Positions 3,201 to 50,786 of a stretch of 64,000 nt of DNA are shown here, in pieces (position 1 is the stretch's first letter; every line of letters starts with the position of its first letter). The translations under genes and the position numbers were made by a program. Source of the DNA: Parcubacteria group bacterium Gr01-1014_8 (GTDB lineage Bacteria > Patescibacteriota > Minisyncoccia > Phycocordibacterales > UBA2100); contig VMGC01000001.1 of the NCBI GenBank assembly GCA_007376385.1, positions 96,001 through 160,000 on the forward strand, in the 5' to 3' direction. The notes below the pieces were generated by a model, which saw only the letters and a program-made list of their open reading frames with translations, was not told where the DNA came from and did no database searches.

Positions 3201-4145
3201 TTACCGTCCCGGCGTGGGAGACGCTTTATCTATCCAGTCTGACGCAGTGTCGGTGTCTCTTGTCGGCAAGCTTCTTGCCATTGAGTGCCCGTCAGGTACA
3301 ACAGGAACCGACGGACTGAACGCATTCGTGTTCGTGCCCCACGACGCTGCATCTGCGGGCGATGCAGAAATTGAACTGCGAATTCGTACCACATCTCCTC
3401 CATTCGTGAGTCCATTTCCGATGGAGCTACCTAGTATTACGACAACAGTGTCCGAAGGAATATTCCATTTATTCTTTGTATTTTCATTTGCGACAATGAG
3501 CATGTATTTTCCGGGCGCAAGCGTTGTGTTACTTGGCAGAGTATCGGAACCTCCTGCATTTTGGATGATCCAGCCTGAAAGATTTACCGTATTCCCAGTG
3601 CCGTTGTACAACTCCACCCATTCATTATCAGGATCGTCTCCATGTGCCCAGTCGACATCGTAGTAAATTTCATTGATCACAAGCTTCGGTGTCTCCGGAG
3701 GCGGCACAGGACTTGGCGATGGAGAGGGAGATGGCGAAGGTGACGGACTCGGGCCTGGGCTTGGACTTGGTGATGGATTTGGCGGCGGCCTGTATGCTGG
3801 CGCAGCCGGACCGCTCGAGCCCATCATCATTATGGAAATAGCAGGCTGCACATAAATGGGACTGACGGACCACAAGCAGTCATATGGAATACCCGTTAAC
3901 CCTAATAGCCACTGTCCTACATTGCGCGGCGGTCCGAACTGGTACGTTCTTGTCGAGCGCGTCCACACATAATCTCCGGGGACTGGCGGTGAGAGCCTTG
4001 TAAAAATTGTTTCGTTGTAGCAGACGTGATAGACCGTGATGCGCCCGCCGAACGGAAATGCAAGCGCGGGGGCGCTGAACAGCGCCCAGAAAAGCAGAGA
4101 CATCAATATGAACAAGGAAAGCTTCGACGCTAAAGCCATATGCAT
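3201..4145 (-). CDS. Secreted protein with PSPSPS low-complexity linker and C-terminal lamin-tail-domain (LTD)-like fold
   Basis: N-terminal signal/TM (LSLFILMSLLFWALFSAPALA), (PS)n repeat, VINEIYYD...EWVELYNGTGNTVNLSGWII LTD-like signature. Confidence 0.6.
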   Translation of the reverse strand: MHMALASKLSLFILMSLLFWALFSAPALAFPFGGRITVYHVCYNETIFTRLSPPVPGDYVWTRSTRTYQFGPPRNVGQWLLGLTGIPYDCLWSVSPIYVQPAISIMMMGSSGPAAPAYRPPPNPSPSPSPGPSPSPSPSPSPSPSPVPPPETPKLVINEIYYDVDWAHGDDPDNEWVELYNGTGNTVNLSGWIIQNAGGSDTLPSNTTLAPGKYMLIVANENTKNKWNIPSDTVVVILGSSIGNGLTNGGDVVRIRSSISASPADAASWGTNTNAFSPSVPVVPDGHSMARSLPTRDTDTASDWIDKASPTPGR

Positions 4146-4283
4146 AGTCTAGCATCCACAAAATTACTCGATGCTCTACGCCGTGAGATAGGTGTAGATA
4201 TCGCTCTAAGCGAGTTTAACCGCGTCACAACAAAAAACTGTATATAACAAAACCTCACCTATATCTCATGGGGTATAATAGTT

Positions 4284-5180
4284 GTGCATATGCATTGGAT
4301 GGTCGCGCATATATATGTGACCGCACTCGTCGTTGTCGGACTTCTCCTCATCGCAGGTACCGCCCTCGTCACATCACGAACGCCTGTCGGCTCATCCCAA
4401 TCAGAAACAACGTGGGGAGGTGCAGGAGGCATCGCATTTTTGAATGCAATCGGGGGAAGAGCTGGTTCTTCACAAGGCCGCATAAAAACACAGCAACTGC
4501 TGGAACAGCAAGCGCAAGATCATACGCCAGTGAGCATCATACCCACAGATGGATCTGAAATATCACAGGGATATGCCGACATCGAATGGCAGTCGCTCCT
4601 CACACAACTGGTAAGACCGAAATCGACAACAGATGAAGTTGCGACAGAACCGGACGGGACTCCGAGCCTCTATTCTTTCATCCCAAGCGGTCTCATGAGT
4701 ACGACCGGTTCTGCGAAACAAAGAACGCCAGCGCAAGATGAGCTTTTCGAGTACGGAAACAGCGTCGGTTCATATATCCAAGGCTTTGATGATCTGCATG
4801 GGAACATGATACAAGTTTTGAAGGACGCATATGAAGATAGAAAAGATCCAGAAAAAATTGCACGCGCGATGCAAATAGGGGCAGATTATGTTCAATTGGG
4901 AAAAGAACTCGAAGAAATGGAAGTTGGACCTAAAGTGGTGCGATCAGCTCATCTTGCTCTTGCAAAAGCGTACCAGGTCGCGGGTTCGAATATGATCGCG
5001 AAGATGAAAACATCGAGCGACGAAGATTTCATTGCGGCAGTGAACACGTACAATCAGAGCGTCGAGGACTTTACAAAACGCTACATCGCACTCGTCACCA
5101 TATTTGAAGTGGCAGAGGTTCAATTCAGCCAAGACGATCCAGGAAAAGTATTCATGTTTCAGTCCGCACCGTCCCTCTAG
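4284..5180 (+). CDS. Hypothetical membrane-anchored protein
   Basis: Long ORF, N-terminal TM helix (VTALVVVGLLLIAGTALV), tataat just upstream. Confidence 0.5.
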   Translation: MHMHWMVAHIYVTALVVVGLLLIAGTALVTSRTPVGSSQSETTWGGAGGIAFLNAIGGRAGSSQGRIKTQQLLEQQAQDHTPVSIIPTDGSEISQGYADIEWQSLLTQLVRPKSTTDEVATEPDGTPSLYSFIPSGLMSTTGSAKQRTPAQDELFEYGNSVGSYIQGFDDLHGNMIQVLKDAYEDRKDPEKIARAMQIGADYVQLGKELEEMEVGPKVVRSAHLALAKAYQVAGSNMIAKMKTSSDEDFIAAVNTYNQSVEDFTKRYIALVTIFEVAEVQFSQDDPGKVFMFQSAPSL

Positions 5181-5215
5181 CCAAAGACACGCGAAAGCGC
5201 TGGTATAATTCAAGC

Positions 5216-6055
5216 GTGGAAGGCGGAAGACCATCCTCCATTGTTATTACTGCCGGGCTTGCGGCAGCGATTTTGCTTTCCGCCATCGGCTGGCAGCTCG
5301 GCGGATACTGGGCCAAACATCACGTCGTAAAAAAACCAATTCAATTTGATAGAGCGCCAGATGAGACATCGAAAGCGCCCGTCATCGGCTCGATAAGCAA
5401 CGACTGGCGCGATGAGTTAGCGAGACTCGGACTAGTAAATACCACGACGGACGCAGCCGTTGCGACCTCCTCGGATCCACTCGCGACATTTGGCGATACC
5501 ATTGCTCAAGAATTCCTTACCACCTACCTGTCACTCAAACAATACGGCAGCTATTCCCCGGAAAAAGCTGCGCAACTAGGCAAAGCGCTCGGAAGTAATG
5601 CTCATGTTCCGACAAATTTCACATTACACGCAAGCAGCGAGCTGACCCTTGCTTCCGATACGTCAAAGGAGCGTATCTTGAAATATCGAAGCGAAATGCG
5701 AGATGCCTTACGCATGTTGGTAAATGGCTCGCCGCCAGAATTCGAAACATTGGCGCTCTATATTGAGACAAAAAACCCCGAGCGTCTCATTGAACTCTCG
5801 GAAGCGGCCGAACGCTATCGAGATGCGGAGAAAAATGCCCTCGCCGTGGTCGTGCCAAGCGATGCTGCTGAGCTTCACATCCGGGTCGTTAATGCGCTCG
5901 GTGCATATGGAAGCGCAGTGGATCAACTTGTCCGCAGTATGGCGAGCCCCGTCACCACTTTAGCGGTTTTGAGAACGTATAATGAGGCTGAGCGCGAAAT
6001 GCTCTACGCATTTGACGCGCTTGCTAGCTATTATGTACGAAAGAGTAGTCAGTAA
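5216..6055 (+). CDS. Hypothetical membrane-anchored protein
   Basis: Long ORF with N-terminal TM (ITAGLAAAILLSAIGW), tataat -10 near 5203. Confidence 0.5.
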   Translation: MEGGRPSSIVITAGLAAAILLSAIGWQLGGYWAKHHVVKKPIQFDRAPDETSKAPVIGSISNDWRDELARLGLVNTTTDAAVATSSDPLATFGDTIAQEFLTTYLSLKQYGSYSPEKAAQLGKALGSNAHVPTNFTLHASSELTLASDTSKERILKYRSEMRDALRMLVNGSPPEFETLALYIETKNPERLIELSEAAERYRDAEKNALAVVVPSDAAELHIRVVNALGAYGSAVDQLVRSMASPVTTLAVLRTYNEAEREMLYAFDALASYYVRKSSQ

Positions 6056-7697
6056 TTTTTACGGTGCCGCATTGCTGCTTCTTCTTGTAGCAATGATCTT
6101 TGGTTTTGACCTTCCGAATGCCCATGCCGCAGAATGCCGAGACGGAAAACTCTATGAAAAACTCGCCGACGGCACTGAAGTTCAAGCGGGCACGTGTGCA
6201 GACGGCAAAGATGTACCCGCATCCCAAAATGCACTTTTAAGAGACGGCATCTTTGGATGCAATGCGAGCAAATACGCAAACATCGGCACACTTTCTGCAG
6301 TTGGCGGCATCTATGTACCGGTCAACGACGCCGCGGTGACCATCAACACTGGTTATTTGGTTTACAAAGAGTGTATTCTCGACGGGGTTGTTTCAAAAAT
6401 AAGCGAAGCGGCCCGCACCGAGCTTGCAGGCACCATTATTCGCCAAATCAATACCGGCCGTGCGGGGCAAGCTCTCTTTGTAAAAAATATCGCGAAAGAA
6501 TTGGACGCACGCGCTGACAGGGTTGCCCTCACGGCTGTAGACAACGCGAATATCGGGGTGATGTGCCCGGCATTTCGCGATGATGTTCGTCGTATTCAGA
6601 TCCGCCGCTACTTGTCCGCCCGCAACTCTCCTAACTCCAGCTTTGCCTGCTCGGTTCCCGTTTCGGCAACAGACCATATAACTGCAATTCGCGCTGGGAT
6701 ATACGCGCCCGACGTACTCGATGCGCTCATCACGCCGGGAAATGACCCGTACACGGCTGATATGATCTTCAACGAATATATGAACGCTTCGATAGCAGAA
6801 GACGCCTATAACCAATATGCGCAGTGGGGATGGGGAAACGGCTTCTACCCGGTGACAACCGAAACAGATAATCCATTCGATGAAGAAACAATGACACCGG
6901 GCCATCTCGTCGCTCAAGGCGCCGCGCAGGTCATCACCGGCGGTTTTCGTTGTCTTGAAGAGGCAGACGAGCCGAGCAAAATATGCGGACCGATGTTCAA
7001 CGCGCTCGCTCAAGCAGCTCTTGACCGCGGTCTCACAGGATTAACACAGGCGCAGAACGGCTTGCCCTCGTATGTAAGCCGCATGGTGTCTGAAGCATCC
7101 GCTGCCGTTCGTCAAGAAGCGGTGAACGCCGCGCTCAATATACTCCTCACATCGAGGCAGATAGAAGCGGCGTACAAACGCGCAAAAGAGGGAATAGCGG
7201 AAGTTTTGACGGGGGCTATAAACAGACTTCGGAGTGCAGAACGAGCTTGTTGGGAGCTCATCATTCCTAAGGTAGAAGAATACGCGAGCACGCAAGGCGC
7301 CCAAATACAGGTCGCAACGACCACCGAATTCTCCCAGGCAGTCATCAACGACCAAATATTGCCCATCGCAGAGTTGGTCGCAGCAGACTTGCAAAAAGCA
7401 GAAAGGGCACTGCAGCAAATTGATAGCCTGATCGCGAGCGTATCGAATAGCGCATCTGCAACAAACCAGAGGGCCGCCCTTGAGCGGCTTGACACCATGG
7501 TCGCAAACGGCCAGCTTCACACTTCGAGTGATGCGACGAACGCTAATAAGCAATTAGAGGATGTGACTGCAAGCGCGAACACTCTCGTTGAAGAGACATT
7601 ACGGGCGTGGGGCGACTCAACTGACCCAAATGTCGGCTGGTGCAACGTGAACAACCCCGCCGTCATCGAGAAGTGGTTCAACAAATGGAAGAAATAA
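6030..7697 (+). CDS. Large secreted hypothetical protein (T4SS-locus associated)
   Basis: Signal peptide AALLLLLVAMIFGFDLPNAHA, Cys-containing N-terminal part, 555 aa. Start chosen at internal Met 6030 to give the signal peptide. Confidence 0.5.
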   Translation: MMYERVVSNFYGAALLLLLVAMIFGFDLPNAHAAECRDGKLYEKLADGTEVQAGTCADGKDVPASQNALLRDGIFGCNASKYANIGTLSAVGGIYVPVNDAAVTINTGYLVYKECILDGVVSKISEAARTELAGTIIRQINTGRAGQALFVKNIAKELDARADRVALTAVDNANIGVMCPAFRDDVRRIQIRRYLSARNSPNSSFACSVPVSATDHITAIRAGIYAPDVLDALITPGNDPYTADMIFNEYMNASIAEDAYNQYAQWGWGNGFYPVTTETDNPFDEETMTPGHLVAQGAAQVITGGFRCLEEADEPSKICGPMFNALAQAALDRGLTGLTQAQNGLPSYVSRMVSEASAAVRQEAVNAALNILLTSRQIEAAYKRAKEGIAEVLTGAINRLRSAERACWELIIPKVEEYASTQGAQIQVATTTEFSQAVINDQILPIAELVAADLQKAERALQQIDSLIASVSNSASATNQRAALERLDTMVANGQLHTSSDATNANKQLEDVTASANTLVEETLRAWGDSTDPNVGWCNVNNPAVIEKWFNKWKK

Positions 7698-7707
7698 CAA
7701 TGAGCAT

Positions 7708-10104
7708 ATGAAGGCTTTCTTGAGAACAGCGAAATATAAAGGGAAGACCATGACGGTAATACTCTTATTATTGTTCTTGTTCCCAATTATTCTCGGAATA
7801 TTTACCCCCGCGACCGCAGCGGCGGCTGAGGAATGTCCCCCAGGCCAAATTTGGGATCCTGGTGAAGATTATGGCGCAGATGTTAGTAGACCAGGTAGGG
7901 CTCCCGGCTGTGTACCAAACACGGCCGAAAACAAAACCGTAATCGCAACGCAGGAAGCACGTCCGGACACAACGGTCGGCCCTGGCGAATGTACTCGCTG
8001 GTGGCATCCCCTCACGCAGCCCATCAACTGCGCGTTCATACCGCTCGCAAGCTGGTCTGGGGCACTCTTCATGTCATTTGGAGCCGCGCTACTGCAGGCG
8101 TCCGGGGCTGTTTTCAATACTCTGGTGAAGTGGATAGTTGTCGAGTTCGGCAGCACCATACAAACGCTCGGCCTCTTGGACGGAATACACCAGGCATGGG
8201 AGATCTTGCGTGACATTTCGAACATCGTCATCATCGGCATGTTCGTCTTTATTGCCATATCGATGATACTGGGGAACGAGACATTCGGAGCAAAAAAATT
8301 AGTCGCGCACGTCCTCATCATCGCCGTCCTGATAAATTTTAGCTTGCTTTTCTCGAAGCTCATTATTGATGCTGGAAACTTTACTGCATACCAATTTTAC
8401 AAAGCCATGGGGGGTACCGCAGACGATGAGTTCGACATTGCGGGCAGATTTTACAGCGTCGTCGGTATAACAAGCGCATGGGACAGCTTTGCCGTTGCCG
8501 AACGCTTCGCGCGCGGCTCGCAAAAAGCAGGTACAAAGCCAGGAGAAAGTAGCACGACGGGTAACAATTTTGCCGCCGGCGTAAGCGGTTTCTTGTACGG
8601 CATATTCGGCGGGATGCTGCTCATCGCATCCGCTATCGTTTTATTCTACGGCTCATATCTCATCATCGTCCGAGCCGTCCTCCTCGTTTTTCTTATGCTT
8701 GTTTCCGCACTCGCATTCGCATCATGGCTCGTACCAAAAATGAACAGTGGCAGCATCAGTTTCAGTGCATGGTGGAAATCGCTCATCAATGCTTCAGTGT
8801 TCGCGCCGCTCCTTATGATCATGCTCTACGTATCACTCCTCATCATGAACCCTGCAGCAGGAAAACGAGAAGGGAGCTTAGGCGCTATCGCAGGTAACCC
8901 GGAAAAAGTGGGGCAAAACTGGAAGACGCTTATCATTTTTATCTTCGGCATCGGCATGCTCTACGTGTCGTTCAAGGTCGCGAACACATTCTCGAGACAG
9001 ATAGCCGGGTTTAGCGTAGCGAGCGGCGCCGTCGGCAAGGCATTTGGAGCAACGGCGGGTACAGCCGGACTTTTTGGCCGCTACTCGCTGGGACTCCTAG
9101 GCTCACAGCTCGCTGCGAGAACTGGGCTTGGCACAATGGACGGCCTCAAAGGCAGGATAGCGCGTGCTGGATTAAGTTCTCTTGCTACAGGCAGTTTTGA
9201 CGTGCGTCGCATCCCTGGCGTTGCCTCCGGCGCAAAATACGGCGTAGATTTTGGTAAAGCAAAAGGAGAAGGCGGATACCTCAAGGCTGTTTCCGATAGA
9301 GAAAAGAGAATAATCGCAACGGAAGCAGGATATCGCCAGATGGTGACCACAAAAACAAACTCCGACTTTAAGGAAGAGCGTTTGCTTGAAGAACAGAAGC
9401 AGGCTGCCGCGAAGCGAATTAGAGAACAAGAAGCTCGTGCGGCAGAGCTTTCTAAACACCCTGCAGTCGCAGGCAAGCCTGCTGAAAAAGCTCAGCCAAC
9501 TCCAGCACCAGCCACGCAAGGCGCTTACGGTAGAACGCAGACCGCGCGCGATATCGCGGACGCTCAGCAACGGCAAGCGCAAACTGCAGCAGCTGGAAAA
9601 GAAGAAGGAAAGATCTCGACAGACGCAGAAACGGCTCGAATTGCTCGCATCGAACGGGGTCTACGAGCAGAAGAGAAACAAAGCTATCTTACCGAAGGCC
9701 AAGTAAGGTCTGCCGCACAAGCTACTCTTGCCGCAGGCGTTGCACCGACCGATGAAAACAGGGCAGTCGTTGAGGAATTACGAAAGGTGCGAGAATCCAT
9801 CACTGCCGAAAAAGAATTGCTAGCGCGTCTGGAAAAAACACCCACATCAAGAGATATCCGTGGACAGAAGTTCGATGACGCTATGAGGAATAGCTTCTAC
9901 TTCTTGGACTTCAGCAAACACCGCACGGCTGCTCGCGCAGAAAAGATAGCAGAGACGGCACGCAAGACAGACTATCAGAAGCTTGCTGAACGATTGGCAA
10001 AAGATATGGAGGATGTCGCCAAAAAAGAAGGAAAAAAGACTGCCGACGTAGTAAAAGAGGCAGTCGAAAAAGCGGCAGGGCCTGCTAAGGAGGCCGGACA
10101 CTAA
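7708..10104 (+). CDS. Polytopic membrane protein, VirB6/TrbL-like T4SS channel component with long charged/coiled C-terminal tail
   Basis: Signal peptide, Cys-rich periplasmic N-terminal segment, at least 6 TM helices (res ~120-420), then ~350 aa A/E/K/R-rich hydrophilic tail. Sits immediately upstream of PrgI-like and VirB4. Confidence 0.5.
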   Translation: MKAFLRTAKYKGKTMTVILLLLFLFPIILGIFTPATAAAAEECPPGQIWDPGEDYGADVSRPGRAPGCVPNTAENKTVIATQEARPDTTVGPGECTRWWHPLTQPINCAFIPLASWSGALFMSFGAALLQASGAVFNTLVKWIVVEFGSTIQTLGLLDGIHQAWEILRDISNIVIIGMFVFIAISMILGNETFGAKKLVAHVLIIAVLINFSLLFSKLIIDAGNFTAYQFYKAMGGTADDEFDIAGRFYSVVGITSAWDSFAVAERFARGSQKAGTKPGESSTTGNNFAAGVSGFLYGIFGGMLLIASAIVLFYGSYLIIVRAVLLVFLMLVSALAFASWLVPKMNSGSISFSAWWKSLINASVFAPLLMIMLYVSLLIMNPAAGKREGSLGAIAGNPEKVGQNWKTLIIFIFGIGMLYVSFKVANTFSRQIAGFSVASGAVGKAFGATAGTAGLFGRYSLGLLGSQLAARTGLGTMDGLKGRIARAGLSSLATGSFDVRRIPGVASGAKYGVDFGKAKGEGGYLKAVSDREKRIIATEAGYRQMVTTKTNSDFKEERLLEEQKQAAAKRIREQEARAAELSKHPAVAGKPAEKAQPTPAPATQGAYGRTQTARDIADAQQRQAQTAAAGKEEGKISTDAETARIARIERGLRAEEKQSYLTEGQVRSAAQATLAAGVAPTDENRAVVEELRKVRESITAEKELLARLEKTPTSRDIRGQKFDDAMRNSFYFLDFSKHRTAARAEKIAETARKTDYQKLAERLAKDMEDVAKKEGKKTADVVKEAVEKAAGPAKEAGH

Positions 10105-10108
10105 ATCT

Positions 10109-10657
10109 ATGGCTGACGATATAAAAAAGGTACTTGAGGAGCGTTTCAATTCACTGCCAGATGCCGTGCAAAAGGCCATTCTTTCCGGCCATATCCAGGA
10201 AAAATTTCAGGAGTTGGCAAGAAAGCACCAGCTGCATGTCGACGCGTGGCAACAAGTCGAGAACAAAATAATGCTGACGGTGCTCGGCGTCATACAGCCT
10301 GAAGAGCTGGTCGACAAAATAGTGAACGAAACCAATGTTGGTGCGGAGAAGGCGGCTACCATCGTGAGCGACATCGCTCTTTCAGTCTTTAAGCCAATTC
10401 GGGAAGAACTTGAGAGAGAGTTGGGACATCCTCAAGCGAGAGAAGAAGTCATATCGGACATAGAGAAAGTCCGACAAGAAGTGTTATCACAGGCGCCTGC
10501 ACCCCAAGTAGCGGCTCCTGTACCTGCAACACCCCCAAATCCGCTGCCGACTGAAAAAGTTGCCCGCGCTCCCGCTTCAGGCGCATACAAACCAGGAGAG
10601 ACGAGCGTCGAGAGAGCAGATGTTCACGACGACCCTTACAGGGAGCCGCCTCTCTGA
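10109..10657 (+). CDS. Hypothetical soluble protein with Pro-rich C-terminus
   Basis: ORF starts 5 bp after the preceding stop. No recognised domain. Confidence 0.4.
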   Translation: MADDIKKVLEERFNSLPDAVQKAILSGHIQEKFQELARKHQLHVDAWQQVENKIMLTVLGVIQPEELVDKIVNETNVGAEKAATIVSDIALSVFKPIREELERELGHPQAREEVISDIEKVRQEVLSQAPAPQVAAPVPATPPNPLPTEKVARAPASGAYKPGETSVERADVHDDPYREPPL

Positions 10658-10797
10658 AGAGTTTGCTCACAATACGTACAGAAGATGCGTAACGTACTAA
10701 ACTCATTGTAGTACAATGGTGAGACTGCTAGGGAAATCGAGCATACGCTGCTTGTTGGTCAGCAGTATCTTCTGTGTTGCTCCCTAGGCTTTGATAC

Positions 10798-11298
10798 ATG
10801 CAATTTCAAGTACCCCAATTTATTGAGGTCGAGGATAAGATATTCGGTCCACTCACCTTTAAGCAATTCGTCTATGTCGCAGGAGGCGGCGGATTGGCCT
10901 ACCTCATCTGGCGGGTACTCCCCATCTATCTCGCGGCGCCGCTCGTCGCAGGCTCCCTTGGTCTCGGAGCAGCCCTCGCTTTTATGCAGTACAACGGGCG
11001 CCCCTTCATTCTCGCTCTTGAGCACGGCTTTTATTTTTTTCTGCGTTCGAAACTCTACTTATGGAATAATCAGCGGCGAAACAAGAAGCTGGCGGCGTCT
11101 GCAAACGAGCAACATCAACAGACACCAGAAATTTATGTGCCGAAGCTGTCGGAGAGCAGGTTGCACGAACTTGCGTGGAGCCTCGACATCAAGGAGCGGA
11201 TCGCTGCTGGTGTTGCGAATGAGGATGATAGAAATGAAATGCCTCGTTCCCGGCTCGTTGCTCCTATTCGAACCGCCCGCAGCGCTTTAGTGCAATAA
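10798..11298 (+). CDS. PrgI-family protein (VirB3-like) of Gram-positive-type T4SS
   Basis: MQFQVPQFIEVEDKIFGPLTFKQFVYVAGGGGLAYLI...MQYNGRPFILALEHGFYFFLRSKLYLW: N-terminal VP..ED.IFG.LT.RQF motif, two TM helices, NG.P...Y pattern. Position directly before VirB4. Confidence 0.6.
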   Translation: MQFQVPQFIEVEDKIFGPLTFKQFVYVAGGGGLAYLIWRVLPIYLAAPLVAGSLGLGAALAFMQYNGRPFILALEHGFYFFLRSKLYLWNNQRRNKKLAASANEQHQQTPEIYVPKLSESRLHELAWSLDIKERIAAGVANEDDRNEMPRSRLVAPIRTARSALVQ

Positions 11299-11304
11299 TA
11301 GAGT

Positions 11305-11976
11305 ATGTCAGAGATCACATCATCAATACCGCGCGTGAGCAGCAAAGCAACCCAAGATTTTGTGCCCGTGCATGAAGTTCGGGATGGCGTCGTTGTCCTC
11401 AAAGATGGAGGCCTTCGAGCAATACTCCTAGCCTCGTCATTGAACTTCGCACTGAAATCCGAGGACGAGCAAACCGCATTTATCGTTCAATTCCAGAATT
11501 TTCTCAACTCACTGGATTTTTCCGTACAGATATTCGTGCAATCACGAATGCTCGACATACGCCCCTACATCGCCACCTTGGAGTCACAGTTCAAACAACA
11601 ATTGGACGACCTTATGCGCATACAGATACGCGAATACATCGGCTTCATAAAAAGCTTCACTGAAGCCGCTAACATCATGACGAAGAATTTCTTTATCATC
11701 GTGCCGTACTCGCCCGCGATCATCCAAACCGGTCAAGGAATACTCGGCAAATTGCCCTTTACCGGCAAAAAGAAAAATTCTGAAGAAGAGAACCGCACTT
11801 TTGAAGAACAAATATCGCAGCTCGAGCAGCGCATCTCCATCGTCCAGCAGGGGCTCATCCGCACCGGCGTCCGCACCGTCCAGCTTGGAACTGAGGAAGC
11901 GATAGAATTGATGTACAAAATGTTCAACCCCGGTGAAGAAGGGAAGCCAATGGCCGTTCCTGAATCGCAAAAATAG
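11305..11976 (+). CDS. VirB4 (TraE/Orf16-type) N-terminal domain, encoded as a separate ORF
   Basis: VRDGVVVLKDGGLRAILLASSLNFALKSEDEQTAFIVQFQNFLNSLDFSVQIFVQ...KNFFIIVPY matches the characteristic N-terminus of Gram-positive VirB4 homologues. Ends TAG at 11974-11976, one nt before the ATG of the ATPase ORF. Confidence 0.55.
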   Translation: MSEITSSIPRVSSKATQDFVPVHEVRDGVVVLKDGGLRAILLASSLNFALKSEDEQTAFIVQFQNFLNSLDFSVQIFVQSRMLDIRPYIATLESQFKQQLDDLMRIQIREYIGFIKSFTEAANIMTKNFFIIVPYSPAIIQTGQGILGKLPFTGKKKNSEEENRTFEEQISQLEQRISIVQQGLIRTGVRTVQLGTEEAIELMYKMFNPGEEGKPMAVPESQK

Positions 11977-11977
11977 T

Positions 11978-13969
11978 ATGGCGCTCCTCGATCTATTCAA
12001 GAAAAAAGGGCCGCAGTCCGTAGTCTTGCCCGTATTGCCTGAAGAGATATTCCGCACGGGAGTTCTTGACCTTCAAGACGTCATCGCACCTCACGCTCTC
12101 CGCATTTCACCTCGCGAACTCGACCTTGGGGAAAAGATCGCACGCACATTCTTCGTTATCTCGTATCCGCGTTTTCTTACGACAGGATGGTTCGCGCCCA
12201 TCATTAACATGGATAAAATAATCGACATTTCGATATTCATTCACCCGATGGATACGAATGAAATGCTTCGAAAATTCCAAAAGAAAGTGGCAGAGGTTCA
12301 GAGCCAGATATCAACGCGGGAAGGGAAGGGCATGGTCAGAGACCCTATGCTTGACACCGCCTACGCTGACCTTGAAAAATTGCGTGATTCACTCCAGCAA
12401 GCACAGGAGCGCATCTTTGAAGTAGGATTGTATCTCACCATTTACGGCTCCACTCGCGAAGAAGTTGATAAGATAGAAAGCGAGGTACGCTCAATTCTTG
12501 AATCGCGCCTTGTGTATATCCGTCCCGCGCTATTCCAGCAAGAGCAAGGCTTCAGAAGCGTTCTGCCGACGGCAACCGATGAACTGAATGTGCACACAAA
12601 ATTGAATTCAGCCCCTCTTTCATCGGTATTTCCGTTCATTTCCTTCGACCTGACGTCCGACCGGGGAATTCTATATGGCATAAACCGCCATAATTCATCT
12701 CTCATTCTTTTTGATCGCTTCTCGCTTGAGAACTACAATTCAGTGACCTTTGCCAAGTCCGGTGCGGGAAAATCCTACACGACAAAACTTGAGATCCTGC
12801 GTTCGTTGATGTTCGATACAGAAGTCATCGTCATCGACCCCGAACGTGAATACGAATATCTCGCAGAGACGGTCGGCGGACGTTATTTCAATATCTCACT
12901 CTCCTCGGAGCACCACATCAATCCCTTTGACTTGCCGATACCGCGAGAAGATGAGAACCCCGGGGATGTGCTGCGCAACAATATCATCACGCTTGTCGGA
13001 CTTTTCCGTATCATGCTCGGAGGTTTGACGCCCGAAGAAGACGCCATCATCGACAAGGCCATCACCGAAACGTATGCCCTGAAAGACATCACGCAAGATG
13101 CGAATTTCGCAGCAGTCGAGCCGCCGCTTCTTTCCGACTTCGAACTCGTACTCTCCGGCATGGAGGGCAGCGATTCACTGGTTCAGAGACTCTCGAAATA
13201 TACAAAGGGCACGTGGTCAGGATTTATGAACCGCCCGACGAACGTTGACATGAATAAAAAATTGGTCGTCTTCTCGGTGCGAGACATGGAGGACGACCTG
13301 AAACCTGTCGCTATGTACATCATCACGCACCACATCTGGAATACCGTGCGAAAGGAACTCCGTAAACGACTCCTGGTGATCGATGAGGCATGGTGGATGA
13401 TGCGTTCCCAAGATACTGCGTCTTTCCTGTTTTCAATCGCAAAACGTGGACGTAAATACTATCTTGGAATCTCTACCATCACGCAAGACGTATCAGACTT
13501 TTTGAACTCCCCGTATGGAATACCGATGATAACCAACTCTTCTATCCAGCTCCTGCTCCGCCAATCGCCAACATCGGTCGACCTCGTGCAACAGACATTC
13601 AAATTGTCAGACGAGGAAAAATACCTGCTCTTGGAATCCGATGTAGGTGAAGGCATTTTCTTCGCAGGGCTGAAGCACGTAGCCATAAAAGTCATTGCTT
13701 CGTATACGGAAGACCAAATAATCACGTCCGACCCATCGCAGATACTTGCCATCCGCAAAGCGAAACAGGAACTGGTCTTGGCAAACGAGCCACAGAATGT
13801 AGCCCAGACGACCCCGATATCTCAAACCAAGGAAGCGGCCGCTATACTCCAAAGCTCGGCGTTAAAACCCGCTGAAGTGCCAAATACGCCAACGCCGCAG
13901 GCATCACCAACATCCGCGCCAAATACTACCCGACAAGTAGCATCAATTTTGGAGAGACCGGGTAATTGA
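11978..13969 (+). CDS. VirB4-family T4SS ATPase (ATPase domain ORF)
   Basis: Walker A FAKSGAGKSYTTK, Walker B RLLVIDEAWWMM, conserved YPRFLTTGWFAPII segment. Start taken at MALLDLF (11978), immediately after the upstream ORF stop. Confidence 0.85.
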   Translation: MALLDLFKKKGPQSVVLPVLPEEIFRTGVLDLQDVIAPHALRISPRELDLGEKIARTFFVISYPRFLTTGWFAPIINMDKIIDISIFIHPMDTNEMLRKFQKKVAEVQSQISTREGKGMVRDPMLDTAYADLEKLRDSLQQAQERIFEVGLYLTIYGSTREEVDKIESEVRSILESRLVYIRPALFQQEQGFRSVLPTATDELNVHTKLNSAPLSSVFPFISFDLTSDRGILYGINRHNSSLILFDRFSLENYNSVTFAKSGAGKSYTTKLEILRSLMFDTEVIVIDPEREYEYLAETVGGRYFNISLSSEHHINPFDLPIPREDENPGDVLRNNIITLVGLFRIMLGGLTPEEDAIIDKAITETYALKDITQDANFAAVEPPLLSDFELVLSGMEGSDSLVQRLSKYTKGTWSGFMNRPTNVDMNKKLVVFSVRDMEDDLKPVAMYIITHHIWNTVRKELRKRLLVIDEAWWMMRSQDTASFLFSIAKRGRKYYLGISTITQDVSDFLNSPYGIPMITNSSIQLLLRQSPTSVDLVQQTFKLSDEEKYLLLESDVGEGIFFAGLKHVAIKVIASYTEDQIITSDPSQILAIRKAKQELVLANEPQNVAQTTPISQTKEAAAILQSSALKPAEVPNTPTPQASPTSAPNTTRQVASILERPGN

Positions 13970-14027
13970 CCTCCAAAACATACTGAAGCTAAGGATTAAC
14001 ATCAGACGTTGAAAAACGACTCAATTC

Positions 14028-14468
14028 ATGGATGAAAATCCTCTAGACCAGGTACCAAGTGACGAGGTCGCTGAGTTATCGGTCATGGATCCGCAAGAGG
14101 AGCCTGACTTTCCATTCGTCATCGTGGCAACGGCCGTTCTAAAAGACCTGCTAGACGGATTGGATCTATCTATCATCTTCATAATCCTGACGACTGTATT
14201 ATCCGTTCTGCTGACAATAATTTTGTTCCTATGGGTTGTCGGTAAATTGGGTGGCGGCTGGTGGAAGCGGCAGTTAATAAGATGGTTGTGGACTCGGTAC
14301 GTAGCAACAATTCTTTTAGAATTTATCCCGTTTCTCAAGATGGTACCAGCGGCCACAATTTTCGTTCTCATGGCCCATCACCACGAGAAAAAATCTGTGA
14401 AATTATTCAATGCAGCCTTGGAAGCCTTCCGCGACGGATTATTCAAGGCGCTGCGACAAAAAAACTGA
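14028..14468 (+). CDS. Small polytopic membrane protein (T4SS-locus associated)
   Basis: 3-4 hydrophobic helices, acidic N-terminus. Confidence 0.45.
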   Translation: MDENPLDQVPSDEVAELSVMDPQEEPDFPFVIVATAVLKDLLDGLDLSIIFIILTTVLSVLLTIILFLWVVGKLGGGWWKRQLIRWLWTRYVATILLEFIPFLKMVPAATIFVLMAHHHEKKSVKLFNAALEAFRDGLFKALRQKN

Positions 14469-14569
14469 ACGCCTGAAGGGACCCCCTGGTGGCTGCAGAT
14501 CGTTTGCCAATTGCCTGGAATTCACCGCCCTAACATGCAAAACAAATAAGGGATGAAGTCGGCTGTATA

Positions 14570-15619
14570 ATGATGCCAATGTCATCGCGGTTGTTCTTCA
14601 GTATTCCGGCGTTCGCTCTTTTGTTACTTTTTGCTGCGCCCGTATACGCACAATACATCCTTCCTCCTTCTGCTGACCCAATATTATTCAAGCTTAGTCC
14701 TTCGAATCCCGAGCCCGGCTCAATCGTCCATATTTTTGCAAATAGTCTGACATTTGACCTCAAAAAGACTCACGTAACATGGTACGTAAATGACGCTCTG
14801 CTACTTGAAGGCGACGGTCTTACGGAAGTTGATGTGACGCTTGGCTCAACAGGTTCTGCAACTCACGTCATTGCTCTCGCTGAGAAAGACGGCGAGACGC
14901 TGGCCAGCGCAGAAGTATTCATGCGCCCCGCAGAAGTTGATCTCTTGTGGGAAGCGAATTCATATGTTCCCCCCTTCTATAAGGGGAAACATCTCGCTTC
15001 ACCAAATTCGGTAGTTCGTGCAGAAGCCTATGCGCGATTGCGCGATCAAGAGGGAAATCTGATACTGCCTTCCGAAATCGAGTATACATGGCACCGTAAC
15101 GGCGCACTGCTCGCGTCCCAATCCGGCCGAGGGAAATCTTACGCCTCTTTCCCTGCTCCGCTCCTATTCGGAAGCGACACAATATCAGTCGAGGTAACCT
15201 CGATAGATGAGAGTGTGAGTGCTAGCGCGACAACTATTATTCCCTCCGTGGACCCATTTGTCGTCCTCTATCAGGAACATCCTCTGTTTGGGATCTTTTA
15301 TCACGCAGCTGTTGCACGTGCTGCATTCCTGCCAGACGTCGAAGCGACGTTCGTTGCCATTCCATATTTTGCGAGCAGCATCACGAGCCACTCCGACGCA
15401 AGACTATTATATGCCTGGCGCGTGAACGACAGGCCAATAACAGTGGATGGAGCAGAGCCTCATCGCTTGACCATCAATGCTGAAAATTCAACGGGAGAAG
15501 CGCACGTCGAAGTCGCTGTTTCGCACCTCACTAACTACTTTATGGACGCTCGCGGAGCGTGGGACATAGCATTCGACAGAATACCGGGCGGGGACCCATT
15601 CTCCACAAACGGACTATGA
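14570..15619 (+). CDS. Secreted hypothetical protein
   Basis: Signal peptide MMPMSSRLFFSIPAFALLLLFAAPVYAQ. Stop overlaps next start (ATGA). Confidence 0.5.
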   Translation: MMPMSSRLFFSIPAFALLLLFAAPVYAQYILPPSADPILFKLSPSNPEPGSIVHIFANSLTFDLKKTHVTWYVNDALLLEGDGLTEVDVTLGSTGSATHVIALAEKDGETLASAEVFMRPAEVDLLWEANSYVPPFYKGKHLASPNSVVRAEAYARLRDQEGNLILPSEIEYTWHRNGALLASQSGRGKSYASFPAPLLFGSDTISVEVTSIDESVSASATTIIPSVDPFVVLYQEHPLFGIFYHAAVARAAFLPDVEATFVAIPYFASSITSHSDARLLYAWRVNDRPITVDGAEPHRLTINAENSTGEAHVEVAVSHLTNYFMDARGAWDIAFDRIPGGDPFSTNGL

Positions 15620-16980
15620 TTCATACGGATATTTCCCGCATATTCAAGTACGCAAGTATCGGGCTCATCTTCGTTCTTATTATAGGGCTTGGCGGATGGT
15701 ACATATACTTGCGCACGCAAACATCATCAATTGACGCGGCGTCAAGCGGACGCGGGTTCCGCGCGAGCATTCCCACTTCAAGTTCGCTGGGGAGTACTTT
15801 CACCAACATAATTTCCGGATTCAGAAGAACCCCCAGTGAAGCGAGCGAAAATCCGCCAGGAATAAGCCCGCAAAGCTTTTCGAGTGGTATTTCTAACTTT
15901 TCCGAAGGCGTAAAAACTGCGTTCGGTAACTTGATATCAGGACTCGGCTCCCTCGTCCCTGGTTCCGCAAGCTCAACGCCGATAAAACAAACCCCTCGTC
16001 TTTGGCAGGTGCAAAAAAGCCCCGTCGCTGGATTCAGGTTCATCGCTGCAACAACGACAACGCTTCGCTTTATGGAACGCTCAAGCGGCTATATTTTCGA
16101 CGTGAACCCGGCGACAGGGAAAACAACGCGAGTAACAAATACTCTTATCCCGAAAGTATATGATGCACGGTTCGCCAGGGACGGTTCTCCGGTTATAAAA
16201 ACTCTTGAAAACGACGTGCGGACAACCTATAGCGCGACATTAGCATCAAGTTCGAACGAAACTCTTGCCACACTCGTTCTAACGCCGCTAGGAAATAACG
16301 TGGCAGATGCAGTACCAAACGCTACATCACGCGAGCTTCTCTCGCTCATCGAAAGTGAGAATGGATCCTCTATTGTGCGCTCAGGATGGAACGGCTCTAA
16401 ACCAACGACGCTCTTTAGCTCATCGCTCTCGGGATGGAGAATGTACTGGACCTATGACAACAAGGTCTACATCGCGCAAAAAGCGGCGACAGGAGTCCCA
16501 GGTAACGCGTACGAACTTCTTGGCAATGGAGAACTTGTTCCACTAGCGCGTTCTGTTTCGGGGCTCACGATAGTGCCAAAAGCAACTTCTACTGCTCTGC
16601 TTATTGCTTCTGATGCTGGCGTTGTGTCTACCCTTGTCAGGCCAAATGCTGACACAGCGTTCATAATACTACCCGTGAAGACGATAGTCGACAAATGTCT
16701 ATGGGCTCCAGGAAATAATCTGATCGCGTATTGCGCAGTGCCATCGAGCATTCCTTCAAAACAATTCTTGGATGAGTGGTATCGAGGGGAGATACATACG
16801 GCTGACTCGTGGTGGCGCGTTGACGCGAGCGCAGGCTCGGCGCAATTGCTGTTTTCGCCCGCGCGCGAGAGCGGCTCTTCGCTTGATGCGGAAACCCCGA
16901 GAATAGACAATAGCGGGACGTACATAGCATTCCTCGATTCACATGACAAGTCACTGTGGATACTGCGCATCAATGAATAG
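15616..16980 (+). CDS. Membrane-anchored hypothetical protein, possibly beta-propeller-like
   Basis: Start MIHTD with ATGA overlap, single N-terminal TM (IGLIFVLIIGLGGWYIYL), Ser/Thr-rich linker, long extracytoplasmic domain. Confidence 0.5.
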   Translation: MIHTDISRIFKYASIGLIFVLIIGLGGWYIYLRTQTSSIDAASSGRGFRASIPTSSSLGSTFTNIISGFRRTPSEASENPPGISPQSFSSGISNFSEGVKTAFGNLISGLGSLVPGSASSTPIKQTPRLWQVQKSPVAGFRFIAATTTTLRFMERSSGYIFDVNPATGKTTRVTNTLIPKVYDARFARDGSPVIKTLENDVRTTYSATLASSSNETLATLVLTPLGNNVADAVPNATSRELLSLIESENGSSIVRSGWNGSKPTTLFSSSLSGWRMYWTYDNKVYIAQKAATGVPGNAYELLGNGELVPLARSVSGLTIVPKATSTALLIASDAGVVSTLVRPNADTAFIILPVKTIVDKCLWAPGNNLIAYCAVPSSIPSKQFLDEWYRGEIHTADSWWRVDASAGSAQLLFSPARESGSSLDAETPRIDNSGTYIAFLDSHDKSLWILRINE

Positions 16981-16982
16981 CC

Positions 16983-17138
16983 ATGAAAAAAGTTGCATCT
17001 AAGGTGCGCAGCGCGCGGAAGACGTTCGCATTTATCTCCCTTTCCGGCCTGAATGGTCCGGAATTCGCTCCGTTCCTCACCGCCGCGTTCAATAGCCAGA
17101 ATTTTCCCACATTCGTGAACGCTCTCTTTAAGGGTTGA
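16983..17138 (+). CDS. Small ORF (51 aa) carrying repeat copy 1, paralogue of 17590..17871
   Basis: MKKVASKVRSARKTFAFISLSGLNGPEFAPFLTAAFNSQNFPTFVNALFKG. ATG 2 nt after upstream stop. Confidence 0.3.
   Translation: MKKVASKVRSARKTFAFISLSGLNGPEFAPFLTAAFNSQNFPTFVNALFKG
17035..17133. repeat. Perfect 99-bp direct repeat, copy 1
   Basis: tctccctttccggcctgaatggtccggaattcgctccgttcctcaccgccgcgttcaatagccagaattttcccacattcgtgaacgctctctttaagg, identical at 17645-17743. Confidence 0.9.
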
Positions 17139-17589
17139 ACATTGTGGGCAGGATGAAGCCACTTCCTGCCGCTCCGAGGCTTCCTACGAGCACCGCGCCT
17201 GCGGAAAGCACTTTTACCCCGCCAGACCCGGATCAAACTGTGGTCGCCCCCGTGAATAGCAACGTTGATCGATGGTGTACAACATCAAGTTCTGGAGGAG
17301 CCACACTATGTTTTACCGGGCCTCAAGCGCAGCGAAATTGCAACGCGCAATACGCATCAAGAGGCATCGATAGGCAGTGCACGTCCTTCCCAGCTCAATA
17401 AAGGTTCCTCGGAGCAAGCTCTGAGGTATTGAACCTGTGTTTGCGCATATTGCCCATTTAAAAATAATCATACATCGCTAGAGATGCCCTGCACTCGCGA
17501 TATAATAGAACTGCAGACAACTATAGTGCCTTGCTGCCAGACATTACGACATGCGTAAAGATATGTGTTCGCGACCTGCCTCGCGTACA

Positions 17590-17871
17590 ATGAAAAAAAT
17601 ATTGTCCAAGTTTCGGGAGCTGCCTCACGCGTTCCAGGGTTTCGTCTCCCTTTCCGGCCTGAATGGTCCGGAATTCGCTCCGTTCCTCACCGCCGCGTTC
17701 AATAGCCAGAATTTTCCCACATTCGTGAACGCTCTCTTTAAGGAACAATTCACGCAACCGCCTGCACAGAATTCGTTCTTCGGAGGAGCAGGCGGACAAT
17801 TTGATCCTTCGCTCAATGGAGTTGGCGTCTCAGGTAATGAAATAGGGAACCCAAACCCATCATCACCGTAG
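17590..17871 (+). CDS. Small ORF (93 aa) carrying repeat copy 2, Gly/Pro/Asn-rich C-terminal tail
   Basis: MKKILSKFRELPHAFQGFVSLSGLNGPEFAPFLTAAFNSQNFPTFVNALFKEQF... tataat-like at ~17503. Confidence 0.35.
   Translation: MKKILSKFRELPHAFQGFVSLSGLNGPEFAPFLTAAFNSQNFPTFVNALFKEQFTQPPAQNSFFGGAGGQFDPSLNGVGVSGNEIGNPNPSSP
17645..17743. repeat. Perfect 99-bp direct repeat, copy 2
   Basis: Identical to 17035-17133, flanks diverge immediately outside. Confidence 0.9.
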
Positions 17872-17872
17872 T

Positions 17873-18376
17873 TTATACATCGCTCGTATATCTAATCACG
17901 ACTCGTCGACTGCGTCCCTCCCCTTGTGATTCTGTTTTAACGTTCGGAGAATCTGCGAGCGTCGTGTGCACAATGAGGCGCTCATAGGCACTCATGGGAG
18001 AGAGCTCCACATCGTATTGAAATGAACGAGCTCGTTCTGCCATCATCAAGGCTTTCGCCTGCAAGTCCTTTATCTGTTTTGAACGATAGTCATTTACGTC
18101 CACCAAAAAATGAGTCTCGTTTGAATTTTCATCAGGTGCGATCGGGACAGTGCGATTGCCCATGAGTCGCTTTTCGACTATTTTTTTTACCAGCTGATCT
18201 ATCGCATGTACCGTATCTCCGTGCATCCCGATAAGGGAGCGCGCATCGTCCGCCTGGATAGCAAATACCGATTGCCCGGCTATTTCTTCGTACTTGACAC
18301 CGGAGTACGCCGCACCCATCGCTGAAAGCGTCTCTTTTAGGACTGATCCGACGATCTCATTGAGCTCAGACTTCAT
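17873..18376 (-). CDS. jag: Jag/KhpB-like RNA-binding protein (KH + R3H domains)
   Basis: C-terminal R3H signature LSPMSAYERLIVHTTL...GEGRSRRVVI. Downstream of yidC in the conserved rpmH-rnpA-yidC-jag order. Confidence 0.8.
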   Translation of the reverse strand: MKSELNEIVGSVLKETLSAMGAAYSGVKYEEIAGQSVFAIQADDARSLIGMHGDTVHAIDQLVKKIVEKRLMGNRTVPIAPDENSNETHFLVDVNDYRSKQIKDLQAKALMMAERARSFQYDVELSPMSAYERLIVHTTLADSPNVKTESQGEGRSRRVVIRYTSDV

Positions 18377-18420: not shown

Positions 18421-19188
18421 TCAAACCCCCGGCGCCGTAGGCTGCCTGACCTGTTCTGTTGCTTTTTTTTCTTTAAGACGTCGTCCCATGGCAAGCTCCT
18501 GCAGAATCATGAACGTGTTGCTCGCGACCCAGTATAACGGAACAGCAGCGGAAACGGTGTATGCGATGCCACCGATCATGATAGGGAGCACGTAACGGGC
18601 CTGCAGATCGAAACTCCGCGCCATATCCGCAGAGAAAGAGCCGTCCGATTGCGTGGCAGGTTTGCGCGGTCCCATCGAGAGCCGTGCATATATCAATTGC
18701 GTAATCCCGGCAAAAAACGCGAGCAGAATGCTATGCGAACCCATGTTGATGAGACCCAGAAATTCCATGTTCACACTTTCCGGGGTGGGTACGAATGAAT
18801 ACAGATATTCTGGGTGCACATTCGGCAACCCTCCCTTCCAAAAAACCCAGTAGAGGCCGAACAAAATGGGCAGCTGTAAAAGTACTAGAAAAAAGGAGGC
18901 GAACGGACGAATGCTTTTCTCACGATACAGAGCAAAGATGGCGCGCGCCTGTTCCTCCTGCTTGTCCTTGAATTTCTTTTTTATTTCGTCGATTTCCGGA
19001 GCGACTTCTCTCATCGCCGCTTGCGTGCGCACAGCTTGGCGCGAAAGGGGAAAGAGAATGACGCGGACAACGAGGGTCAGAATGACGACCGCGATACCAA
19101 CATCATGCAGAGGAACAACATCTACAAAAAAAACAAGCCCGTTGTAGAGCGGGGTGTAAACGAGTGCGTTGAATATAGCAGAGATCAT
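18421..19188 (-). CDS. yidC: Membrane protein insertase YidC/Oxa1 family (short form)
   Basis: Five TM segments, conserved LPILFGLYWVF and PLYWVASN motifs, synteny with rnpA. Confidence 0.85.
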   Translation of the reverse strand: MISAIFNALVYTPLYNGLVFFVDVVPLHDVGIAVVILTLVVRVILFPLSRQAVRTQAAMREVAPEIDEIKKKFKDKQEEQARAIFALYREKSIRPFASFFLVLLQLPILFGLYWVFWKGGLPNVHPEYLYSFVPTPESVNMEFLGLINMGSHSILLAFFAGITQLIYARLSMGPRKPATQSDGSFSADMARSFDLQARYVLPIMIGGIAYTVSAAVPLYWVASNTFMILQELAMGRRLKEKKATEQVRQPTAPGV

Positions 19189-50752: not shown

Positions 50753-50786
50753 AAAAAATACTGGGGATGAGAATATTTTGCGTGAG

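Follow-up and report, generated by a model that had tools for sequence, protein, structure and literature searches.

Which kind of machine is encoded by a gene block that looks like the core of a type IV secretion system (T4SS), lies in an ordinary chromosomal neighbourhood and has no relaxase beside it? The question is raised by a locus of Parcubacteria group bacterium Gr01-1014_8, which we analyzed in a stretch of 64 kb (the window) of a 408-kb source contig (VMGC01000001.1). All coordinates given here are window positions. The locus is very probably a chromosomal, vertically inherited T4SS of the Patescibacteria clade, carried by a Kaiserbacteria-like (Paceibacteria) bacterium. The T4SS of this clade goes back to a conjugation apparatus of the MPF_FATA type from monoderm bacteria. 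It has already been published, and the window contains an ordinary member, since the component set, the absence of a relaxase and the neighbourhood match the published descriptions (PMC12102498, PMC10633639). A preliminary description of this DNA, made from the sequence alone, had placed the locus in a genome of the CPR (candidate phyla radiation) type and compared it with the T4SS-like machines of episymbiotic Patescibacteria. The organism is indeed a CPR member, the encoded proteins being 100% identical to those recorded for Gr01-1014_8, and the comparison agrees with the literature (PMC12102498, PMC10633639).

The recognisable core of the system is encoded by four genes:

7708-10104, plus strand: extended VirB6-like polytopic protein of 798 amino acids, assigned by fold, topology and position
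10798-11298, plus strand: PrgI-family (VirB3-like) membrane protein of 166 amino acids, PF12666
11305-11976, plus strand: TrsD-like protein of 223 amino acids, the VirB4 N-domain as a gene of its own, with stop codon TAG
11978-13969, plus strand: VirB4 ATPase body of 663 amino acids, CD1110 / MPF_FATA type, with start codon ATG

VirB4 and PrgI, both named in the preliminary description, were recovered above the cut-offs of their hidden Markov models (HMMs). For the VirB4 ATPase the best model was that of the MPF_FATA CD1110 family (NF045971, 358.5 bits, cut-off 325), which is matched over positions 185-733. PF19044 (83.6 bits) as well as the TIGR00929 and TraC models match too, and the protein carries a Walker A motif (AKSGAGKS) and a Walker B motif (LLVIDE at residue 465). 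PrgI matches PF12666 with 40.1 bits (gathering score 27) over residues 9-92 and contains a hydrophobic hairpin at residues 33-63. Only 6 nt separate the end of its gene from the start of the TrsD-like gene. VirB4 itself had been described as one gene at 11305-13969. The family assignment was right but the single reading frame was not, as there are two open reading frames (ORFs) in different frames, the ATPase ORF opening one base after the TAG of the TrsD-like ORF. The TrsD-like ORF matches positions 2-118 of NF045971 and several VirB4 models over their first 120-200 positions, and its precomputed annotation is PF26593 (TraC-like). Against the TrsD/TraD model NF041427 it reached an E value of 1.9e-5 and 24.6 bits, far under the cut-off of 200. 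As model positions 2-118 belong to this ORF and 185-733 to the ATPase, the two together correspond to one VirB4. Hydropathy indicates no membrane segment in either of them. The split is not a frameshift error, since the TrsD-like protein has more than 7,900 homologs, all 120 of those listed being 203-229 amino acids long, and since in each of the 74 related loci TrsD-like protein and VirB4 have separate genes, which occur in all three relative frames. Among the matches listed, close homologs with a source name come from Kaiserbacteria, Paceibacterota or Parcubacteria. In one relative (L052, Patescibacteria H51-bin041_1, 10678-14526) the VirB4 ORF is 1282 amino acids long and contains an intein in the P-loop domain with a LAGLIDADG endonuclease (PF14890, 68 bits; PF14528, 64 bits), which fits a stable core gene.

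The 798-amino acid protein had been described as VirB6/TrbL-like. Its topology, its tail and a VirB6 fold were recovered, but membership in the TrbL sequence family was not. It consists of an N-terminal signal or anchor, a Cys-containing outer domain and about 6 transmembrane helices (about 6-7 hydrophobic segments by hydropathy), followed by a charged C-terminal tail of ~350 amino acids. The long hydrophilic tail fits the "extended VirB6" type (PMC12857230). An AlphaFold model of residues 1-481, calculated from 47 sequences, reached a predicted local distance difference test (pLDDT) score of 79. Its best PDB match in Foldseek was TrwI/VirB6 of R388 (8rt9_F, E 8e-3, probability 1.0), with three more R388 entries among the top ten; TrwI/VirB6 and DotA are the best natural structural matches. 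No Pfam or NCBIfam model, including TrbL/VirB6 (PF04610), matched the protein, and Pfam analysis of 47 homologs gave a single one that reaches TrbL, with an E value of 0.047. The profile of the whole protein found only coiled-coil noise from the tail among PDB sequences. A profile of the transmembrane domain searched against 1.8 billion representatives retrieved 18,438 proteins at E ≤ 0.001, of which the top 150 listed are near relatives. VirB6 membership by sequence (PF04610, PrgH) was rejected, as all profile and alignment tests were negative. The label VirB6-like is based on fold, topology and the position 5' of PrgI and VirB4, which is also that of PrgH in pCF10. The predicted product of 7708-10104 is thus VirB6-like by modelled fold, topology and position, outside the TrbL sequence family.

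A pilin gene completes the set in the relatives. The gene between the homolog of the last envelope protein of the block (G454, see below) and jag encodes a small protein with two hydrophobic helices there, and tblastn detected a pilin-like gene at this site in all of the 45 full-length loci described below. From the relatives' pilins scanned, 18 of 20 match PF18895 (T4SS pilin), the copy of the closest long relative (L008) with 30.6 bits versus 26.6; a pilin profile found nothing among PDB sequences. In the window the same site is occupied by pieces:

16983-17138, plus strand: pilin fragment A, 51 codons from the N-terminal end of a pilin of the VirB2-like (PF18895) type, with a stop where helix 1 should begin
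17035-17133, plus strand: repeat copy 1, coding for ...SLSGLNGPEFAPFLTAAFNSQNFPTFVNALFK
17135-17401, plus strand: out-of-frame pilin C-terminal tail (LNIVGRMKPLPAAPRLP...), without hydrophobic core
17590-17871, plus strand: pilin fragment B of 93 amino acids, consisting of the N-terminus, then repeat copy 2, then the pilin tail

From the pilins found in synteny in 14 relatives an HMM was built, and fragment A matches its positions 26-59; the fragment was also aligned with the pilins of L008 and of L010, the closest species representative. Fragment B matches positions 21-59 of the HMM and lacks a hydrophobic core of ~60 amino acids. Its N-terminus is orthologous to that of the L010 pilin (MKKIL...FQGFVSLSGL...), the latter beginning with MKKILHYMRKFPSLFQGFVSLSGLQGQNFAPFLTQAF... 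and the window ORF with MKKILSKFRELPHAFQGFVSLSGLNGPEFAPFLTAAF... Both ORFs of the window therefore contain the N-terminal part before the helices and skip the core of ~60 residues. Searching the window with the relatives' pilins by tblastn gave nothing significant; the fragments were seen via the HMM and other assemblies. The two small ORFs with a perfect repeat that had been reported at the 3' edge of the locus do share a direct repeat of 99 nt, 100% identical, at 17035-17133 and 17645-17743. The absence of VirB2, as it had been stated, applies to an intact gene; both repeat-bearing ORFs are fragments of VirB2-like pilins, so that in this respect the statement did not hold.

Other assemblies of the genome differ from the window at exactly this point. 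One contig from ENA (L001) is identical to the window at 798-17134 (16,337 nt, 0 mismatches) and then continues with "GAISIGAIIAVLQ", which is pilin helix 1. A second ENA contig (L006) and a Logan contig (L007) are identical to the window from 17745 to their contig ends, again with 0 mismatches, and upstream of 17745 they encode "...HIMRDAMVGLLLLMGIWLILRQINPQLLELNIVGRMKPLPAAPRLPSSASPGMQ", which is pilin helix 2. The junctions in the ENA sequences read ...AAGGG followed by AGCTATTTCC... and ...GGAATGC followed by AACAATTC... The 52 nt after repeat copy 1 recur after pilin helix 2 in L006, and the exact 93-amino acid protein was found in the NCBI metagenome-assembled genome (MAG) only (TSC87001.1). 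The sole difference between the window and the ENA and Logan contigs is the stretch 17135-17744, whose 610 nt equal the spacing of the repeat. Since these assemblies carry the hydrophobic core there, the window is probably mis-assembled at the pilin. Judged from the sequences, one or two pilin genes have most likely been mis-assembled or collapsed at 17135-17744, and a true deletion in the strain is the less probable alternative.

To compare the locus among relatives, species-representative genomes were scanned with the TrsD-like protein, which gave 80 loci, 45 of them with full flanks and each of these from a different species-representative genome. Loci with a lineage name among the 80 belong mostly to Kaiserbacteria or Paceibacterota. 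All of the 45 full-length loci show the order UvrD-KsgA-LTD-A298-B279-C554-VirB6L-D182-PrgI-TrsD-VirB4-F349-G454-pilin-Jag-YidC-DnaA-DnaN, each gene being present wherever the locus reaches far enough (LTD, lamin-tail-domain protein; VirB6L, VirB6-like; names with a letter and a number denote proteins that are listed further below). The block order is therefore conserved across the Patescibacteria genomes compared. For VirB4 the median best-segment identity to the window is 89%, for TrsD 79% and for PrgI 63%, compared with 80% for DnaA and 61% for YidC as housekeeping proteins. The membrane and surface proteins reach 32-38% and the pilin 44-51%. Conservation of the cytoplasmic core equals that of housekeeping genes, and the surface parts are fast-evolving. 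Such a pattern, with a core close to housekeeping level and low identity in the outer parts, points to a vertically inherited core machine and not to a mobile element.

Functions for DNA transfer were searched in 48 ORFs of the window, including every greedily called ORF of at least 200 amino acids. Among these, Pfam detected no relaxase (MOB), no integrase or recombinase and no coupling protein of the VirD4/TcpA type (PF02534, PF10412, PF12696), which bears out the earlier statement that these three are missing. At the locus itself no VirB7/9/10 core complex and no VirB5, VirB8, VirB11 or VirD4 were detected. Apart from the T4SS the window is ordinary chromosome, with RuvB, RuvC, PolA, a Mur ligase, PilB, PilM and tRNAs.

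In several ways this corresponds to what is known of Patescibacteria. Quinonero-Coronel et al. (2025) described a monophyletic Patescibacteria VirB4 clade nested in MPF_FATA, with TrsD homologs beside VirB4 and with PrgI/VirB3, VirB6 and VirB2-like pilins nearby. Relaxases are almost absent, genes for type IV coupling proteins (T4CP) are usually far off, and the T4SS of Paceibacteria has dnaA, dnaN, rnpA, ksgA and rpmH as neighbours (PMC12102498). The locus of the window likewise combines a TrsD-like protein by VirB4, PrgI/VirB3, a VirB6-like protein and, near virB4, a VirB2-like pilin position that holds fragments in this assembly; it is chromosomal, without relaxase and with no T4CP nearby, and follows the Paceibacteria location pattern (dnaA/dnaN/ksgA). 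It shows no difference in kind from the published systems (PMC12102498, PMC10633639); VirB6 is missed here by the standard HMM. The locus SEML1_0006-0019 of the saccharibacterium Southlakia epibionticum contains six arrayed pilins plus genes for peptidase/lysozyme downstream of virB4 (PMC10633639), whereas one pilin position and seven lineage-specific proteins without family make up these parts of the Kaiserbacteria-type block.

Among conjugative systems, the locus resembles the MPF_FATA prototype Prg/Pcf of pCF10 (Enterococcus faecalis) in the CD1110-family VirB4, the Pfam family of PrgI, the order polytopic protein - PrgI - VirB4 and the monoderm type without outer-membrane core complex. However, pCF10 encodes PcfC (VirD4), the relaxase PcfG, the hydrolase PrgK, the VirB8-like PrgL and the adhesins PrgB and PrgC; it has no pilin and a single-gene VirB4, in contrast to the split VirB4 and the pilin position of the window, and its PrgH is a third as long as the VirB6-like protein and shows no sequence match with it. 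A small homolog of the VirB4 N-terminus adjoining VirB4 is also found in the Trs/Tra systems of pGO1/pSK41 (Staphylococcus; TrsD and TrsE), but pGO1 is a conjugative plasmid with relaxase and T4CP. With Trw of R388 (MPF_T) and Dot/Icm of Legionella the locus shares the VirB6 fold (TrwI, DotA), and the relatives' pilin is of the VirB2 type (PF18895); these two are diderm systems with a VirB7/9/10 core, VirB5, VirB8, VirB11 and VirD4.

Saccharibacteria were shown to depend on their T4SS genes and pilins for epibiotic growth, comEC being non-essential (Wang et al., 2023; PMC10633639), and a review lists the system as a special T4SS of Gram-positive type by which a pilus may be built (PMC12857230). 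Transferred to the locus described here, VirB4 hexamers, each subunit made of two chains, would dock at the membrane via PrgI/VirB3 and the VirB6-like protein. VirB4 would provide the power by which pilin is extracted and polymerised into a filament or channel at the surface, and the fast-evolving proteins A298, B279, C554, F349 and G454 would reach across the wall and make contact with the host cell. The cargo would be proteins or other molecules exchanged between epibiont and host, with no conjugative transfer of DNA; this follows the role proposed for the essential system of Saccharibacteria. The Patescibacteria T4SS is the first T4SS reported to be essential for its carrier bacterium, and it may be a conduit through which ultra-small epibionts exploit their hosts. 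The window adds no new kind of system. It provides a clean example of the Kaiserbacteria-type block that is useful for the choice of targets, with a VirB4 that is split in all loci, a core conserved like DnaA and fast-evolving surface parts. Furthermore, its VirB6-like protein is recognisable by structure only, and in the public MAG a mis-assembly of the pilin gene is probable.

Several points weigh against the assignment to the Patescibacteria T4SS. The VirB6-like protein fails the Pfam TrbL model, its hhalign comparison with PrgH of pCF10 gave nothing (probability 0.2), and tblastn of the protein against 72,556 plasmids gave no match. No VirB1- or VirB8-like fold was identified. Both pilin-like ORFs as given lack the hydrophobic core and, taken at face value, would provide no pilus. 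A coupling protein may be encoded elsewhere in the genome, as the window covers 64 kb of the 408-kb contig; T4CP homologs occur elsewhere in many Patescibacteria genomes (PMC12102498). Finally, a transport role in Paceibacteria is a proposal that follows the one made for Saccharibacteria.

Four other explanations have to be considered. The block could be a machine for DNA uptake, that is a T4SS run in reverse like ComB of Helicobacter or the archaeal Ced system, which imports host DNA as a source of nucleotides or for transformation. The lack of relaxase and T4CP among the ORFs scanned makes conjugative export unlikely, Patescibacteria are without nucleotide synthesis (PMC10633639), and in the class ABY1 T4SS genes adjoin comF, recG and radA (PMC12102498). 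The VirB4 ATPase also shows a weak, partial match to CedB, but with 35 bits it is far under the NCBIfam cut-off of 700 and confined to the P-loop region. No competence genes were found in the block with Pfam or NCBIfam. In Southlakia the deletion of comEC ended competence and not viability, whereas the T4SS is essential (PMC10633639, PMC12857230), so the essential role is not uptake linked to ComEC. We consider DNA uptake very unlikely. If the block were what is left of a Gram-positive-type conjugative element or plasmid that had integrated and then lost the functions for transfer, this would explain why VirB4 and PrgI belong to the families of Firmicutes conjugative elements and why the order VirB6-like / PrgI / VirB4 mirrors PrgH-PrgI-PrgJ of pCF10. 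Such a remnant is, however, not expected at the identical chromosomal site, from ksgA to jag-yidC-dnaA, in all of the 45 full-length loci, with a uniform GC content of ~0.50, with a conservation equal to that of DnaA and, in the 48 ORFs scanned, with no integrase, relaxase or T4CP; repeats flanking the block were not found either. Exchange of VirB4 between classes is rare (PMC12102498), and any transfer from monoderms would be ancient and no feature of this locus. This origin is extremely improbable.

The pilin site allows the view that the window sequence is correct and that the pilin cores are truly lost, leaving a system that is pilus-less or decaying in this genome. The window, which equals the NCBI MAG, does encode pilin fragments only, the 93-amino acid ORF being annotated as TSC87001.1, and there is no long k-mer common to the junctions by which a simple de Bruijn mis-join could be explained. 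Against this, the ENA and Logan contigs agree with the window on both sides and carry helix 1 and helix 2 exactly at the break points, every full-length locus has a pilin-like gene there, and all other genes of the block are intact. A true loss is accordingly quite improbable. The last explanation goes beyond the published system. It holds that the block is a distinct Kaiserbacteria/Paceibacteria T4SS architecture, in which the places of VirB1, VirB5, VirB8 and the adhesins are taken by seven proteins without detectable relatives (A298, B279, C554, D182, F349, G454 and the sporadic E146 type), that the pilin locus is a real site of recombinational variation by repeat-bounded rearrangement, and that C554 is a new host-contacting protein of the pilus tip or stalk. 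Taken as a whole, this is an unlikely reading. The vertically inherited Patescibacteria T4SS thus remains the preferred explanation.

Around the core, the block encodes the following envelope and soluble proteins:

4284-5180, plus strand: A298, 298 amino acids, first gene of the conserved block, N-terminal anchor (hydrophobic residues 3-33)
5216-6055, plus strand: B279, 279 amino acids, N-terminal anchor (membrane segment at residues 6-29)
6033-7697, plus strand: C554, 554 amino acids, secreted, mostly alpha-helical, with a signal-peptide-like N-terminus
10109-10657, plus strand: D182, 182 amino acids, soluble, its N-domain helical and followed by a Pro-rich linker and a C-terminal motif that is conserved
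14028-14468, plus strand: E146, 146 amino acids, small polytopic membrane protein with 2-3 hydrophobic segments
14570-15619, plus strand: F349, 349 amino acids, secreted, with a signal peptide ending ...VYA/Q
15616-16980, plus strand: G454, 454 amino acids, membrane-anchored, with an N-terminal segment, a Ser-rich linker and a large outer domain

The six conserved proteins (A298, B279, C554, D182, F349 and G454) and the accessory E146 have no family match. They are not unrelated housekeeping proteins, and the conserved ones represent lineage-specific envelope proteins. No neighbour matches a Pfam or NCBIfam model for VirB8 (NTF2-like) or VirB1 (transglycosylase/peptidase). In relatives a LysM-Peptidase_M23 gene is located just upstream of uvrD; the equivalent position is beyond the left edge of the window. 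The A298 ortholog is syntenic in 44 of the 45 full-length loci and can be aligned with the orthologs of L002, L004 and L008, and B279 is syntenic in all 45; both are without Pfam or NCBIfam match. A BLASTP comparison (E 0.05) did not support A298 and B279 as paralogs. C554, syntenic in 45 of 45 loci directly 5' of the VirB6-like gene, had been noted as a large secreted protein at 6030-7697, which is correct except for the start at 6033 (3 nt off). It has 115 homologs and no common Pfam domain. Its AlphaFold2 model (45 homologs, pLDDT 76) consists of long helices, for which Foldseek found no match in the PDB (best E 0.29, not VirB5), and its profile found nothing among PDB sequences. The candidate assignment of C554 as VirB5-like was rejected, as neither fold nor profile has a match in the PDB.

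The small soluble protein expected between the VirB6-like protein and PrgI is D182, which contains no membrane segment, has sub-threshold Pfam matches only and is syntenic in 45/45 loci. Its C-terminal motif R.P.SGAY.PG..S.ER....DDPYRE is kept in the orthologs after a Pro-rich linker of variable sequence and may be a docking peptide. L008, the closest long relative, and also L009 have a gene of 131 amino acids of the bAvd / 23S-rRNA-IVP-like type inserted between the D182 homolog and PrgI (13042-13437 in L008). Proteins of the bAvd type assist diversity-generating retroelements as accessory factors.

Downstream of VirB4, hydropathy agrees with the topologies given in the preliminary description, namely a small polytopic, a secreted and a membrane-anchored protein (E146, F349 and G454). 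E146 has no Pfam or NCBIfam match and tblastn found it in none of the 45 related loci, while its sequence is identical in the NCBI, ENA and Logan assemblies. Five relatives encode a different polytopic protein of 107-148 amino acids at this site with the weak common motif E.[IV]P...P.WT. From these comparisons E146 is a putative accessory membrane protein outside the conserved core. It was also considered as pilin and rejected, having no Pfam match and being absent from the relatives in tblastn. F349, with a sub-threshold BiPBP_C match only, and G454, with no match in Pfam or NCBIfam, are both syntenic in 45/45 loci, and the profiles of both found nothing among PDB sequences.

The limits of the locus had been set at 5982-16980. 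The core block lies within them, but the conserved cluster extends over 4284-17871, a tightly packed run of 13-14 genes on the plus strand, as synteny in the relatives adds the two upstream genes at 4284-5180 and 5216-6055. The ORFs thus do form a contiguous, closely packed block on one strand. The many ATGA overlaps mentioned earlier were not found. Within the locus there is only one, between 14570-15619 and 15616-16980 (ATGA at 15616-15619), and a further one joins the UvrD and KsgA genes outside of it. The remaining junctions are gaps of 1-10 nt, one overlap of 23 nt and gaps of 58, 101 and 140 nt. TATAAT occurs 7-9 nt 5' of the GTG starts of the first two block genes (4268-4283, ggggtataatagttGTG; 5200-5215, ctggtataattcaagcGTG), and these look like leaderless transcription starts. 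Consensus scans for promoters and terminators gave chance level only. The block is flanked by:

370-2400: UvrD, housekeeping, upstream
2397-3200: KsgA, housekeeping, upstream
3201-4145, minus strand: lamin-tail-domain protein (PF00932) with a long PSPSPSP linker, divergent from the T4SS block
17873-18376: Jag, downstream
18421-19188: YidC, downstream
19817-21175: DnaA, downstream
21395-22495: DnaN, downstream, followed by a class A penicillin-binding protein

The lamin-tail-domain protein keeps its position in 44 of 45 relatives, and a second protein with this domain (PF00932) is encoded at 39082-40068 on the minus strand. A 114-amino acid ORF at 19185-19529 (minus strand) is located where relatives encode the RNase P protein (PF00825). 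Four DnaA boxes (TTATCCACA, at most one mismatch) are clustered at 21180-21339 in the spacer between dnaA and dnaN, and one more was found upstream of dnaA at 19734. This spacer is likely to be oriC, which would place the end of the T4SS cluster ~3 kb from the origin. As the block is transcribed towards it, transcription would run head-on to the fork leaving oriC. The GC skew signal is weak and the GC content is even.

A few observations concern the remaining parts of the window. Genes of a type IV pilus were found with a PilB-like T2SSE ATPase (31441-33129, minus strand, 385 bits) and PilM (50652-51905, plus strand, 106 bits); with the T4SS in the same window, the genome has both systems, as reported for Saccharibacteria. 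Between tRNA-Val (53721-53794) and tRNA-Leu (55209-55294) an ORF with a LAGLIDADG_3 domain is located at 54279-55199 in a stretch of low GC content (0.446); it may be a free-standing homing endonuclease. At 43434-44924 a protein of 496 amino acids with an HTTM (vitamin K-dependent carboxylase-like) domain is encoded (45.6 bits).

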